From the NCBI GenBank assembly GCA_951406725.2, contig OX597829.1, positions 16,182,001 through 16,246,000 on the forward strand: DNA of 64,000 bases, written 5' to 3'. Both the position numbers and the translations under genes were made by a program. This DNA is from Octopus vulgaris. Its lineage: Eukaryota. The notes under the pieces are model-generated. The model was not told where the DNA came from. It made no database searches and was given only the letters and a program-made list of their open reading frames with translations. Of this stretch, positions 1,223 to 60,173 are shown one piece after another. Position 1 is the first letter of the stretch. Each line of letters starts with the position of its first letter.

Positions 1223-1523
1223 ATTTTGTTTTGGGATTTGCTTTGCAAGATTCTTTATGTGAGTTCATGTGTTGAAGCATATTCTGTTGTGTCTGGGGAG
1301 AGTCATTTTCTTTTTGTAAAATTTCCACTTTTTTTTTTTATTTTTATTGTCCTAAAATTTTCGTTGTGTCTTGCAATAACAGACAAAGTCAAAATTATTG
1401 AAAAGGTTACAAGACGCAACGAAAATTTTAGGACAATAAAAATTTTTTAAAAAGTGGAAATTTTACTGGTGAGTGTGCTAAATTAAAAGGCACAAAAAGA
1501 AAATGACTCTCCACAGACACAAC
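1223..1523. mobile_element. Penelope-like non-autonomous insertion with internal inversion
   Basis: Inverted arms at about 1281-1376 and 1407-1528. Flanked by a 14-bp direct repeat AGAATTATTATGAT (1209-1222, 1524-1537). Contains a hammerhead-like fold. Confidence 0.6.
1388..1434 (+). ncRNA. minimal hammerhead-like motif, U3-A8 core variant
   Basis: GTC-aaaa-TTA [TTGAAAA] G GTTAC aagac GCAAC [GAAA] at T T TAG-GAC. The inverted arm reads TTGC in stem II, restoring the pairing. Stem III is the palindrome AAATTT. Confidence 0.5.
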
Positions 1524-1603
1524 AGAATTATTATGATGTTTTCAAATAAAATACATGATAAAAAACACACCAACTTTGATTTTCCATTCTTTATTGACAG
1601 TAT

Positions 1604-1783
1604 AGATTGTTAGCCACTACACATTTTTTCTCTCTCCTTGTTTTTTTCTGTATCCCTTTCTGTAGAAGAGCGTAGACTCGAAACGTAAAAGACTTTTTTT
1701 TTATTCCTGAGCGTTATACTAATACATCTGTTTGTTTTGTACACCACCTGCTTTCGTCTTGTTTTTTTTCATTAACTCTCCCT
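1604..1783 (+). mobile_element. ~190-bp Penelope-type non-autonomous repeat (family G), hammerhead-like core CTGTAGA
   Basis: Homologous to 41262-41463 (-), 56642-56836 and 56863-57043. Abuts (TA)n. Motif CTTT CTGTAGA A GAGC gtag ACTC GAAA cg TA AAAG at 1656-1691. Confidence 0.7.
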
Positions 1784-2036
1784 ATATATATATATATATA
1801 TATATATCACACGCTCACATGGTTGCACCAGTTGATCCTGTCATTTCTTATCACACACGAACCTCTCCACTGGACTTTCTATCAACCCTTTACGGATTCT
1901 CTTTCGGATATTTACCCTCCGGATGCACCTCTCCTACCTACGGATCACTGTGGACTCTACTCTAGAAAAATATATCTGGATGTCCTTCCTCTTTCTTTTC
2001 TTTCTTCTAAGACAGTGGATGTGACTTGAATGAGAA

Positions 2037-2450
2037 CTCTCTCTTTTTTTACTCTTTTACTCTTACTTGTTTCAGTCATTTGACTGCAGCCATGCTGGAG
2101 CACCGCCTTTAATCGAGCAACTCGACCCCAGGACTTATTCTTTTGCAAGCCCAGTACTTATTCTATCGGTCTCTTTTGCCGAACCGCTAAGTAACGGGGA
2201 CATAAACACACCAGCATCAGTTGTCAAGCAATGCTAGGGGGACACACAAACACACACACGCATATATATATATATATACATATATACGACGGGCTTCTTT
2301 CAGTTTCCGTCAACCAAATCCACTCACAAGGCTTTGGTCGGCTCAAGGCTATAGTAGAAGACACTTGCCCAAGGTGCCACACAGTGGGACTGAACCCAGA
2401 ACCATGTGGTTGGTAATCTAGCTCCTTACCACACAGCCACTCCTGCACCT
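2037..2450 (-). mobile_element. tRNA-derived SINE family A, full length
   Basis: A box TGGCTGTGTGG, B box GGTTCAGTCCC, CORE-like CACCTTGGGCAAGT, internal (TA/TG)n and (AAAAGAGT)n tail. More than 15 copies or fragments occur in the window. Confidence 0.9.
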
Positions 2451-2609
2451 GTTCTTTTCTAAAGGACAAGCAATAAGGGAACGCTTCATTTTCTGTACAT
2501 TTTCTTAGAACCAGTCCAACTTTCTCTTATGTCAGTCGTCACATCCTTGGTGCTCTGCTAGATCAAGAGTGGAAAGAGAGTCGAGCTCTTGAATACATAA
2601 AGTCCTTAA

Positions 2610-56180: not shown

Positions 56181-56641
56181 ACACACACTTCACTTCCCTT
56201 GTTTTCTGCCTCTTTCTTTTTATTCTATAACCCTTCCGCTCCAGCCTGCAGAATCTAAACGCACACGAGAGGGCCAGTGTAATTTCTAACAACCATTTCT
56301 ATAATTAGAATTTGGATGATTTCCAAATGGGCTGAAAGCCAGTGCATATTCACCAAGTACGTTATACATCCTACAAGTCAATTGTTCTTTGAAAATCTTC
56401 AAATTGCAGCCCCAAAGGGTCATTATCTTCTCATCAGTGTTCAATGTTGGAAAAAAAAAAAGTATAACAGGTGCAGATGTGGCTCAGTAAGAAGCTTGCT
56501 TTCCAACCAAGTAGTTCTTGGGTTCAGTTCTACTGTATGGTACCTAAGAAAAGTATTTTCTCTTACAGTCCTAGGCTAACCAAAGCCTGAGTGGATTTAG
56601 TAGACAGAAACTGAAAGAAACCTGCTATATACATACATACA

Positions 56642-57043
56642 TGATAGATCGTTAGCCACTACACACATTTTTTTCTCTCCTTGTTTCTCTCCATGCTTTT
56701 TCTGTGTCCCTTTCTGTAGAAGAGCATAGGCTTGAAACGTAAAAGACTTTTTCTATTCCTGAGCGTTATACTAATACATCTGTTCGTTTTGTACACCACC
56801 TGCCTTCATCTTTTGTTTTTTTCATAAATTCTCCCTATATATATATATATATATATATATATAGATCGTTAGCCACTACACACATTTTCTTCTCTCCTTG
56901 TTTTTTCCAGTGTCCCTTTCTGTAGAAGAGCGTAGGCTCGAAACGTAAAATACTTTTTCTATTTCTGAGCGTTATCCTAATACATCTGTGTTTTGTTTTG
57001 TACACCACCTGTCTTCATCTTTTGTTTTTTTCGTAAACTCTCC
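56642..57043 (+). mobile_element. head-to-tail pair of family G repeats nested in a SINE A
   Basis: Copies 56642-56836 and 56863-57043 separated by (TA)n. Hammerhead-like motifs at 56710-56745 and 56916-56951. Confidence 0.8.
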
Positions 57044-57452
57044 TTACATTTTATATATATGTATGTATTATTGTGTTTGTCCCCACCACTGCCTGACAAC
57101 CATAACTTAGTGGTTTGGTAAAACAGATCAACAGAACAAGTATCAAGTTTTAAAATTTAAGCACAGGTGTTCAATTTGTTTGGCTAAACCCTCAAAGCAA
57201 TGCCTCAATACCGCCAAAGTCCAGTGACTGAAACCAGTACCAAATAAAATTAAAACTTTTAAAAAATTAAATATTGTCCATGAAAAGTTATTCTCAAGAA
57301 ACATCTTCACACTCTTTAACATCTTTGTACATATGAATTCCAATTTGTCTGTCTTCTATTATTTTCATAAATTAATGTTTTATTCACAATCATGAGATTG
57401 TGGATTTGATTCCCAGACCAGGCAGTAGTAAGATGTGCTCTAGAGAAAATCC

Positions 57453-58262
57453 GGATCTTTTCGGTTTGAACGGCAGTTTTTTCTAGCGGTGTCATATGAA
57501 ATTGTCACCCATAATTATGACCCTAGTATTGGTCTATTGCATTTCAATCTGTTTTAGGGTTAGGGTGGAGGAAAGGTATCTTTTTTCTTCACAAATGTAA
57601 ATAAACTAAATCTGTTTCTTAAACAAGGGACATATTCATACAGCACAGAATGTTTTCACCTCAATAGACATCATTGATTGGTTGAAATTGCAAAAATTGA
57701 AGAAAAAACTACAACAAATATCTTACAAACTATAGAATTTTCTCAATAAAGCCAAGAGAAAAAGATGTTTTATAAACACATTCTACCAGTATACGAAGTT
57801 TAAAAGTGTTTAGTTACTCTCTCTCTTTTACTCTTTTACTTGTTTCAGTCATTTGACTGCGGCCATGCTGGAGCACCACCTTTTAGTACTTATTCTATCG
57901 GTCTCTTTTTGCCGAACCGCTAAGTGACGGGGACGTAAACACACCGGCATCGGTTGTCAAGCAATGCTAGGGGTACAAACACAGACACACAAACACACAC
58001 ACATATACATATACATATATATATATATATATATATATATATATATATACGACAGGCTTCTTTCAGTTTCCGTCTACCAAATCCACTCACAAGGCATTGG
58101 TCGGCCCGGGGCTATAGCAGAAGACACTTGCCCAAGATGCCACGCAGTGGGACTGAACCCGCAACCGTGTGGTTGGTTAGCAAGCTACTTACCACACAGC
58201 TACTCCTGCGCCTATTACGTGGAAATTATTTTAAAAAAACTGCCGTTCAAACCGAAAATCCC
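57453..58262. mobile_element. MITE with ~28-bp TIRs, interrupted by SINE A
   Basis: GGATCTTTTCGGTTTGAACGGCAGTTTTTT versus AAAAAAACTGCCGTTCAAACCGAAAATCCC. Internal TTAGGGTTAGGG. Superfamily not determined. Confidence 0.8.
57817..58213 (-). mobile_element. SINE family A, young
   Basis: Complete head with CpGs retained. Possible TTAC duplication. Confidence 0.9.
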
Positions 58263-60114
58263 TTCATTTCACCTTGTTTCACCCAATTCATTCAGCTGTA
58301 AGTGTGTAACCCTGAAAAAGGACTCACTTTCTGTTCAAGAGGAATGTGGATCACCCCCATATTAGCTAGTGGGGGGGTGACATCATTCAAAAGCTACAAC
58401 GTATTGTGACACGTATTGTAACCGACATTCAATAATACGGCCAATACAGGGATTCGGTAACATATACTTTCTACAAGAACTCTAGAGGCTATATTGTGAA
58501 GTTGTTATAAAGATCTGATTCTCGGTTATAACTGTTATTTAACCTCAGGGTGATTAATTGAATCAGCCTATAGAAAATGTAAGCTGCCATTTATATAAGT
58601 ACATGCAATCCACAGATCTACTGTTACATACATATCATGTCTTCACCAAGATAGTTGACAATGCGGAGCATTCAGACATGCAAATATTCATCATATCGGG
58701 TGTAGTGTGACAGATTGTGTGTTAGGTTTGTCGAATTGGTTCTTGTTACATCAACACTTGGTGTATATATCATAGTAGAACAGATATTTTACACTTTCAT
58801 CATTACCGTCGTCATCATCATCATCATCCTTCAACCTCCACTCTCCCATGCTTACATGGGTGACAACAGGGTTTATTTTGAAACAGATTTTCTATGGCCA
58901 GATTCCCTTCCCTTCCTGTTGCCAACCCTCACCTATCTCCAAGCACCACCACCACCACTACTACATACCAGATTCAAATTGTGTTTATTAAGGTAGATTT
59001 TCTATGACTGGAAGCCGTTCCTGCAACCAACCCTTACCTATTTCCAAGCAATATATTATACATATATCAGCATCATTTTAACATCTATTTTCCTATGCAT
59101 GCCTAGTTCAAACTCTATTTATTAAGGCAGATTTTCTATGACTGTAAGTCCTTCTTGTGGCCAACCCTAACCTATTTCCAAACAATATATATCTGTAAAT
59201 GTAATATGTGACAATTATTTGGTAGCCAATTGTCTATTTACATTTACAGATAAATTCCTCTATTTACATAATATCGAGGTCTCTTTCTTTCTTTCGTTGT
59301 CTTACCATTTTTATCAATATATATATATATATATATATCTGGCACCTGTACCGGTGGCACGTAAAAAGCAGGAAGGGCATCCAGCTGTAGAAGCACTACC
59401 AGATCAGACTGGAACCTGGTGTAGCCTCCTGGTTTCACAGACCCCAGTCGAACCATCCAACCCAAGCTAGCATGGAAAACGGACGTTAAATGATGATGAT
59501 GAAGATATCATCATCATCATAATCATCATTTAATGTCCACTTTACAAAGCTTGCATGATTGAGCTTATTGGGGCCGATTTTCTAAGGCAAGATGCACTTC
59601 TTGTCAATCTTCACATGTTTCTAAACAAGGTAATATTTGGCCCATGGCCAGACATATTTTTGTAGAATACAATGCAGTGAATGACACTGCTTCTATTACA
59701 GTGACAATCATTTTACAACTAACTTGTGACATCAAAACAAAGGGGGCACAAACATACACATATAATTATAAATACTCAAACACACACACACATACACACA
59801 CAGACATACAAATGTCACAGGCATGGCTATATGGTAAGAAGTTTGTTTCCCAGTTTCATGGTTCTGCATTCAATCCCAATGCGTAGCACCTTGACCAAGA
59901 GTCTTCTGCTATAGCTACCTTGTGAGATTTCATTAAGGGAAACTGAAAGAAACCTTTCATATATATATAAAATTATAAATTAGGGTATCTACAAGATACC
60001 AACATGCTGAAAATAGCAGCCATGATCTGACTCTAAAACCAGCTTAATTGTTCATATATCAACACGGAGAGAAAACAAAGAGACAAGATGAAACTAGTAA
60101 AAAATGACTGGATA

Positions 60115-60173
60115 ATTCTAGATCCCGGATTTCTGACTTTGCATTTAGTAATGCTTTGCCTCGTCAGTAGAAT
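60115..60173 (-). ncRNA. hammerhead ribozyme candidate with canonical core
   Basis: Minus strand ATTCTA [CTGACGA] GGC aaa GCATT acta AATGC aaa GTC a [GAAA] TCcggGA T C TAGAAT. 6-bp stem I and AUC cleavage triplet. Lies in a (TA)n-flanked repeat at about 59975-60330. Confidence 0.7.

Follow-up and report, generated by a model that had tools for sequence, protein, structure and literature searches.

Short repeats with hammerhead-like folds and family-specific cores in Octopus vulgaris, and their relation to Penelope-like elements

Hammerheads of Penelope-like elements and related motifs

Minimal hammerhead motifs have already been tied to Penelope-like elements, and those described in metazoans by Cervera and De la Pena (2014; PMC4209133) resemble, in the sections compared, the repeats that we analysed in a stretch of Octopus vulgaris DNA of 64,000 nucleotides (nt; GenBank assembly GCA_951406725.2, contig OX597829.1, positions 16,182,001 to 16,246,000, forward strand), the whole of which is hereafter called the window. 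Both sets display the type-I layout, one nucleotide between A9 and G10.1, the G10.1-C11.1 pair, a palindromic stem III and a common U17, and in both a genome holds many families, mostly as solo copies from truncated elements. Fig. S3 of that work already contains U3-A8, even as the core UUGAAAA, together with U3.G8, the G insertion and an A before GAAA; neither the association with Penelope-like elements nor the U3-A8 core is therefore new, which limits the surprise. In contrast, none of the rows compared in that figure has G3-C8, C4, U6 or C9, which in the octopus are majority states of large families, two of these variant-core families being young and having open reading frames (ORFs) free of interruption.

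We consider it probable that the hammerhead-like repeats of the window are short end pieces of Penelope-like elements (observed for two families, A and B, and presumed for families C to G), each family having its own fixed core, of which G3-C8 and U3-A8 are predicted to cleave weakly and U6, C4 and C9 are likely attenuated. The novelty lies in a natural G3-C8 core that is family-fixed in a recently active element, beside families with U3-A8, U6, C4 and C9. The hammerhead of Penelope-like elements raises the question of its role: it is near-universal, cleaves poorly and was dispensable for insertion in the sole in vitro system. Related octopus families differ at informative positions (three different 3-8 pairs; U6, C4 and C9; one family without a visible hammerhead), which makes cleavage, and the need for it, testable family by family.

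A further close counterpart is PAc (Poseidon of Anolis; Frangieh et al. 2024; PMC11167929), in which, as far as the sections compared go, the hammerhead also stands at the junction of the pseudo-long terminal repeat (pseudo-LTR) and the ORF, two 3' ends fall within the first codons, targets are AT-rich and uncleaved RNA serves as template. The C3G/G8C exchange, an engineered partial rescue in PAc, is natural in octopus family B, so that a classic engineered rescue pair is fixed here in an element that amplified recently. The ATG lies inside the hammerhead in PAc, whereas in family B it follows it, 96 nt from the start of the matched motif. For the natural core variants of Perreault et al. (2011; PMC3088659), the text compared has U3-A8 covariation in common with the octopus, with changes of low activity at positions 6 and 4; these variants are mostly single phage or bacterial loci, without G3-C8, A6U or A9C in that text, in contrast to the high-copy retroelement families of the octopus. 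Non-LTR retrozymes (PMC7229834; bioRxiv 10.64898/2026.07.22.740005) likewise consist, in the parts compared, of short non-coding repeats with a type-I hammerhead that are akin to the pseudo-LTRs of Penelope elements, but they form tandem arrays with one hammerhead per unit, while most octopus copies stand alone or in inverted arrangement and derive from coding parents (see families A and B below). The compared part of Craig et al. (2021; PMC8557442) gives the anatomy of the endonuclease-bearing Neptune and Nematis clades and lists just Naiad elements for the octopus; PMC3884650, in the section compared, mentions a G3-C8 construct with data not shown, and sections of PMC6765202 and PMC6155905 served for further comparison. 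Across this literature, whose coverage was incomplete, we found no natural G3-C8 or A6U, G3-C8 being met as an engineered form alone, and no family-fixed U6, C4 or C9 in Penelope-like elements.

Family cores and parent elements

The window is AT-rich and crowded with microsatellites and short interspersed repeats, in a genome of 2.80 gigabases that a protein labelled Octopus vulgaris matches at 100%, in keeping with an octopus host. Its preliminary description had listed about ten loci sharing a hammerhead layout, and all 11 motifs were recovered where it placed them, to within a few bases, with core position 3 at 1398, 1660, 35768, 41390 (minus strand), 42722, 43114, 46101, 46400 (minus strand), 56714, 56920 and 60167 (minus strand). 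A core-blind descriptor requiring stem I, one inserted base, a stem II that starts with G, GAAA and a palindromic stem III gave 5 matches in the window, versus a mean of 0.24 (maximum 3) in 100 dinucleotide shuffles, and 0 once CUGANGA was required as well; mismatches or atypical stems make the remaining 6 of the 11 loci fail it. In order to sample the genome without selection, 97 stretches of 10 kilobases (kb; 970 kb) were taken, and a stricter core-blind descriptor yielded 21 matches in them, of which 2 look like chance, against 0-1 per shuffle (5 shuffles); the 3-8 pair of these 21 is C-G in 15, U-A in 3, G-C in 2 and C-A in 1. The layout thus occurs far above its frequency in shuffled sequence, in the window and in the unselected stretches alike. 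It had been anticipated that a CUGANGA search would overlook most of these motifs, which is what we observed (0 in the window; 4 canonical versus 27 other matches in the 97 unselected regions), so that such a search would overlook most hammerhead-like repeats of the octopus genome. No Rfam hammerhead model appeared among the 150 window matches listed (E-values up to 5, in a list dominated by microsatellite noise), nor did the young family B copy match one (E-values up to 10).

Every window locus is a copy of one of seven dispersed families (A to G), the top 40 candidates being scored in each search. A profile search of the 970 kb retrieved 22 copies of A, 17 of D, 11 of E, 10 of B, 8 of C, 1 of F and 0 of G, from which simple extrapolation gives about 200,000 copies of families A to G genome-wide. 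A metagenome scan for the family B motif returned 2 matches, both without stem I or palindrome, which were taken as chance.

Family core states were determined with genome-wide exact patterns in which the core positions were left free (for B and C, only positions 3 and 8), the first 100 matches listed for each being counted by eye. These counts revealed that (i) family A (16,446 matches) has U6 in 96, a position 7 divided among U (44), A (25), C (20) and G (11), and positions 3, 4, 5, 8 and 9 at 97-100, (ii) family B (1,173 matches) has G3-C8 in 94, and G3 and C8 are also present in 16 of the 17 copies that were not collected as B, (iii) family C (1,610 matches) has U3-A8 in 90, C3.A8 in 8 and C3-G8 in none, (iv) family D (9,199 matches) has C4 in 72, U4 in 26 and CCA in 3, and because U4 is that frequent it marks a subfamily and does not reflect CpG decay alone, (v) families E (3,819 matches, with U3 in 2) and F (200 matches) have a canonical core, (vi) the heavily CpG-decayed family G has C4 in 17 of its 20 top matches, and (vii) family H (3,219 matches), a related family from outside the window, has C9 in 96 and keeps A9 in 3. 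The family-level cores are CUGUNGA (A), GUGAACA (B), UUGAAAA (C), CCGACGA (most of D, and G), canonical CUGANGA (E and F) and a C9 core (H). Families E, F and C accordingly carry the canonical or the published U3-A8 core, and A, B, most of D and G, and H carry neither.

The earlier suggestion of several families with fixed non-canonical cores is borne out, since the variant cores are the majority state in the genome-wide matches. Not every core that it listed has this standing: TTGAAAA, CTGTAGA and CTGACGA are family-level, whereas GTAAACA, TTGATGA, CCGACAA, CCAAGGA and CCAATGA represent private decay of single copies, alignments tracing GTAAACA to GTGAACA and TTGATGA to CTGATGA, the last three fitting CpG decay of CCGAC/TGA. 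Similarly, the proposed covariation of positions 3 and 8 (C-G, U-A, G-C) holds in that the pair is Watson-Crick in every family, but two of the listed cores break it (U.G at 42722 and C.A at 35768).

Parent elements were found for families A and B and the layout recurs at family level, which agrees with the Penelope-type nature that had been proposed. Family A could be extended through the 5' untranslated region (UTR) to an ATG and a reverse transcriptase (RT), and two whole decayed elements of ~4.2 kb (L241 and L243) carry the A fold at both ends of an ORF with RT and GIY-YIG endonuclease; the family also lies behind the same endonuclease in 2 unselected regions (L273 and L306). For family B, the endonuclease of one unselected stretch (L039) could be assigned to a young family, many copies of which are identical and the open frames of which reach 1,025 amino acids (aa), and a B fold with the core GTGAACA stands 954-1137 nt behind the stop in all 30 endonuclease copies fetched, which are the top 30 of 150 listed, were chosen for identity and differ by 0.15% on average over 717 nt. 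These young B copies have a shorter loop II than older ones and identical stems. At the other end of the element, a B fold lies 96 nt before the ORF ATG in L401, where the frame continues into the same protein as that of the 3'-linked endonuclease family. The pieces of A and B are pseudo-LTR fragments of autonomous Penelope-like elements with RT and GIY-YIG.

Family H (L365, minus strand, 1350-1430; L366-L374, near 1000-1080) is young, includes tandem copies and has open frames that reach 1,312 aa, and its fold combines C9 with an imperfect palindrome and a stem I of 3 base pairs (bp). As read from motifs in the translations, a single ORF with RT and C-terminal GIY-YIG is linked to the repeat in A, B and H, the pseudo-LTRs flanking it at both ends in A, at 3' ends and one 5' end in B, and between tandem copies in H. 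The three proteins have a Cys-rich linker ahead of GIY-YIG; those of A and B are distantly alike (E-value 6e-05), and Pfam gave a sub-threshold RVT_1 match for the A protein and none for the B protein. From sequence motifs rather than a tree, we take A to be Neptune-like and B, C and H to be Nematis-like. The N-termini encoded in the tails of B, C and H are homologous, so that family C most likely represents the end of a related Penelope-like element. For families C to G in general, we infer that the pieces are pseudo-LTRs of protein-coding elements of this kind. The description of these repeats as retrozyme-like non-autonomous families was not upheld: A and B are pseudo-LTRs of coding elements, the tail of C encodes a homologous ORF start, and the 67 copies from the unselected stretches comprise 47 solo copies, 18 with an inverted partner and only 2 in direct tandem.

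Conservation of the fold, a proposed insertion route and predicted cleavage

At family level the layout (stems I and II, the inserted nucleotide, G10.1-C11.1, GAAA, a palindromic stem III and UH) is present in A to E and G; the palindrome is imperfect in F and H, and in F the stem II junction is atypical as well. Because dead copies decay evenly, any signal of selection must come from differences between master lineages, and constraint was assessed on copies not collected for their family, by comparing stems and core with flanks. In family A (22 copies), variation is lower in the stems (0.023) and the core (0.036) than in the flanks (0.10; p=0.003), and it is highest at position 7 (0.59) and position 17 (0.27). 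In hammerhead numbering, 7 and 17 are the free positions. Stems and core also vary less than flanks in family D (23 copies; p=0.015). Descriptively, among 5 natural copies of the three families B, C and H, 5 of 10 pairs, including 3-8, change on both sides and 98% of the cells pair; in family F, subfamilies differ in stem I by an exchange of U-A for C-G. The stems are conserved in A and D, and the 3-8 pair is Watson-Crick in all families, with two double changes. Comparison of the master lineages shows that they retain the stems, G5, G12-A13-A14-A15, U16 and Watson-Crick pairing of 3 with 8, and tolerate changes at 4, 6 and 9. Selection would then preserve the fold and, probably, cleavage at a low level that a dimer or the protein assists, rather than rapid catalysis.

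A subfamily comparison (0/30 versus 27/87, p=1e-4) was not relied on, as it is inflated by a collecting expression that fixed stem II and GAAA, a flaw that also affects its family B columns. Family B occurs in all of four public contig sets bearing four organism labels, no variant being listed in its core or GAAA; a stem I variant in these contigs (A>G opposite U) was not counted as a sign of selection, since it matches a passenger copy in a larger repeat.

The ends of the copies point to how they may have been inserted. B and C copies mostly start just upstream of stem I: measured from the core, the 5' end is at most ~25 nt away in 22 of 23 copies of B (by eye) and at most 14 nt away in 26 of 38 copies of C. 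The 3' ends of B fall into two groups, at 101-107 and 164-175 nt (20 of 20 scored; near ORF codons 11 and 31-34), about 65-70 nt apart, and short copies span both sides of the cleavage site. These two 3' ends of B, and the inverted 5'-truncated partners seen with 18 of the 67 unselected copies, match the optional 3' tail and the inverted partner that characterize endonuclease-bearing Penelope-like elements. Transcription of the element would begin a short way upstream of the hammerhead in the 5' pseudo-LTR, and the element's protein would initiate reverse transcription within the opening codons of the ORF that encodes it; copying back to the RNA 5' end, on a template that is presumably for the most part uncleaved, would then give inserts of 130-230 nt, often with an inverted partner, in AT-rich DNA. 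Such a route fits PAc, for which the sections compared in PMC11167929 report two start sites in the first codons, AT-rich targets and unprocessed RNA as main substrate. At two further loci (C1:14134118 and C2:511370), the inversion joints of B coincide exactly with the homology in stem I, pointing to a switch of template from one strand of this stem to the other.

As to catalysis, the B (G3-C8) and C (U3-A8) folds are predicted to be viable for cleavage, and those of A (U6), D and G (C4) and H (C9) to be attenuated. Within the sections compared of each source, the C3G/G8C exchange brings back part of the activity of a Penelope hammerhead that depends on its protein (PMC11167929), a G:C swap is the sole rescue in the 3-8 region in a pairwise scan in which other changes had low activity (PMC9901934), and U3-A8 is natural and active, with A6C and the viroid change U4C natural and weak (PMC3088659). 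The C9 of family H could pair with G12.

Several observations weigh against the origin and weak cleavage that we favour. The parent ORF of D, E, F and G was not found at their own loci, a further endonuclease search giving other families, and family C is linked by N-terminal homology alone: a search for its parent with a related octopus protein led to H, and a tail-extension pattern to 25 uninformative places. The constraint comparison fell short of significance in both B (17 copies, p=0.31) and E (15 copies, p=0.73), and C offered just 3 copies. In the folds predicted for monomers, stem II forms, and so does stem I in most cases (though not in C), but the three-way junction is always missing, as is expected of dimer-type motifs. 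Part of the 1,173 matches of family B are passengers in one larger recent repeat, 4 loci having an identical junction and 98% identical flanks and ~19 of the first 48 listed showing its spacing (by eye). B copies that start exactly at the cleavage site are rare, about 5 of the 100 listed among 430 non-intact matches, versus 2,636 intact ones, and stem I homology explains two of these. Family H has C9 despite being young with open ORFs. Finally, another young family of Penelope-like elements (L389-L394), which has open frames of 775 aa and numerous identical endonuclease matches, shows no hammerhead in the ~1.1 kb behind its stop and no Rfam match at its 3' end, although elements with a C-terminal endonuclease are said to carry a hammerhead. 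Cleavage may thus be dispensable.

The last three points bear directly on a rather unlikely alternative, in which the repeats have the same pseudo-LTR origin and cleavage is no longer needed, the stems and core letters being kept for protein binding, RNA folding or a promoter while the cores drift. It would account for U6, C4 and C9 each being fixed in families of thousands of copies, for the open ORFs of H, for the low activity of changes in the 3-8 region in the pairwise scan already cited, for the lack of a pile-up of genomic copies at the B cleavage site and for the young family without a hammerhead; in the sections compared of PMC11167929, moreover, in vitro insertion of PAc is unaffected in hammerhead mutants, and no RNA-seq ends lie at the cleavage site. 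What speaks for a retained hammerhead is that the 3-8 pair, which forms in the active conformation, is Watson-Crick in all eight families through two double changes, and that family A varies most between subfamilies at the free positions 7 and 17. At the opposite pole, it is possible, though we doubt it, that these are working hammerheads on a core far wider than CUGANGA, with G3-C8 as a natural ribozyme and U6, C4 and C9 propped up by the element protein or a dimer. In that case most motifs in genomes of this kind would escape hammerhead censuses in animals, and the eight families would amount to a mutational series, supplied by nature, of a ribozyme assisted by protein.

Weak cleavage in end pieces of coding elements, our preferred reading, was also set against independent non-autonomous families that replicate via self-cleaved circular RNA in the manner of retrozymes. 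The copies are indeed short, non-coding and abundant, D to G lack an identified parent, and the window holds a 206-nt direct tandem of two A copies, some other A loci being partial tandems with internal deletions. We nevertheless find this improbable, as A and B are pseudo-LTRs of coding elements, a single exact pattern for a B head-to-tail junction gave 0 matches, copy ends are variable and not at the cleavage site, and the 2 direct tandems among the 67 unselected copies contrast with the tandem arrays of 150-450 bp with canonical hammerheads that retrozymes form in the part of PMC7229834 compared. That all the unusual cores arose by neutral decay of dead canonical hammerheads, or resemble hammerheads by chance, is hardly credible as a general account: decay does hold for five window copies, but at family level both versions are refuted because most copies carry the variant cores, both in the families with 1,173 to 16,446 exact matches and among the young B copies (30 of 30), and shuffles gave 0-1 matches against the 21 observed.

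Copies in the window and neighbouring repeats

The family C pseudo-LTR fragment at 1387..1535 (plus strand) has its hammerhead fold at 1395-1431 with the core TTGAAAA (U3-A8) at 1398, a G inserted after A9, the palindrome AATT and U17. It is accompanied by an inverted, 5'-truncated partner copy at 1241..1376 (minus strand), the tail of which encodes the start of a Penelope-like ORF (ATG near 1306 on the minus strand) with one internal stop. The family B pseudo-LTR fragment at 46083..46280 (plus strand; fold 46094-46144) has the core GTAAACA in place of the family core GTGAACA (G3-C8), a stem I of 7 bp, a stem II of 5 bp, the palindrome AATATT and U17; it includes the ATG of the parent ORF at 46193 and retains ~30 codons. 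Miniature inverted-repeat transposable element hairpins, considered for the loci at 1388 and 46094, were dropped, the hairpins being inverted partner copies. Elsewhere in the genome, a fold-back B insertion lies inside a recently multiplied unit of at least 1.6 kb, ~98% identical and with an internal ~107-nt tandem (L323, L330, L361 and L362), which forms large inverted pairs in L361 and L362.

Four copies of family A are present. The pseudo-LTR at 1601..1782 (plus strand; fold 1656-1691, core CTGTAGA with U6 at 1660) runs on past a TA run into the 5' UTR of the element; the copy at 41262..41485 (minus strand; core 41390-41384) has decayed stems I, II and III; and those at 56644..56835 and 56865..57050 (both plus strand, cores CTGTAGA at 56714 and 56920) are the first and second members of a two-copy partial tandem with a period of 206. 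Outside the window, other Penelope-like RT or endonuclease fragments adjoin family A copies (L011:1-1200, L221:281-793, L234:64-1100 and L312), which suggests nesting at common AT-rich targets. In L243, ~680 nt behind an endonuclease fragment ending at 8653, there is on the minus strand a hammerhead-like motif with a canonical CTGAAGA core and a G insertion, probably a ninth family.

The family D fragment at 35700..35898 (plus strand; fold 35764-35798) has the core CCGACAA, versus CCGACGA (C4) in the family and CTGACGA in a subfamily, and the family E fragment at 42668..42817 (plus strand; fold 42718-42761), behind (AAT)n, has TTGATGA in place of the canonical family core CTGATGA. Family G is represented at 43075..43171 (plus strand; core at 43114), with heavy CpG decay, and at 46290..46455 (minus strand), where the core CCAATGA at 46400-46394 fits CpG decay of CCGAC/TGA (C4). 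The family F fragment at 60069..60192 (minus strand; fold 60173-60115) has the canonical core CTGACGA at 60167, a long interrupted stem II, an additional A before GAAA and an imperfect palindrome. Most loci had been said to abut (TA)n or (AAT)n, and 7 of the 11 do lie within 40 nt of such a run (boundaries by eye), although in family A the TA run is partly internal to the element.

No Penelope-like ORF was seen among the window frames of at least 110 aa. Two 3' pieces of a non-LTR retrotransposon lie within long (ATT)n at 8122-8687 and 8979-10773 (minus strand), with a restriction-like endonuclease end and frames of 519 and 253 aa, and a 163-aa frame at 28744-29235 (minus strand) resembles what we take to be the C-terminus of an RTE-type non-LTR reverse transcriptase. 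Elsewhere in the genome, L040:5567-9090 holds fragmented gag, RT, RNase H and integrase frames of a Ty3/gypsy-like LTR retrotransposon. Much of the window is filled by at least 3 abundant families resembling short interspersed nuclear elements, with copies 65-90% identical (for example at 2050-2450, 4180-4600, 12715-12950 and 34773-35190).

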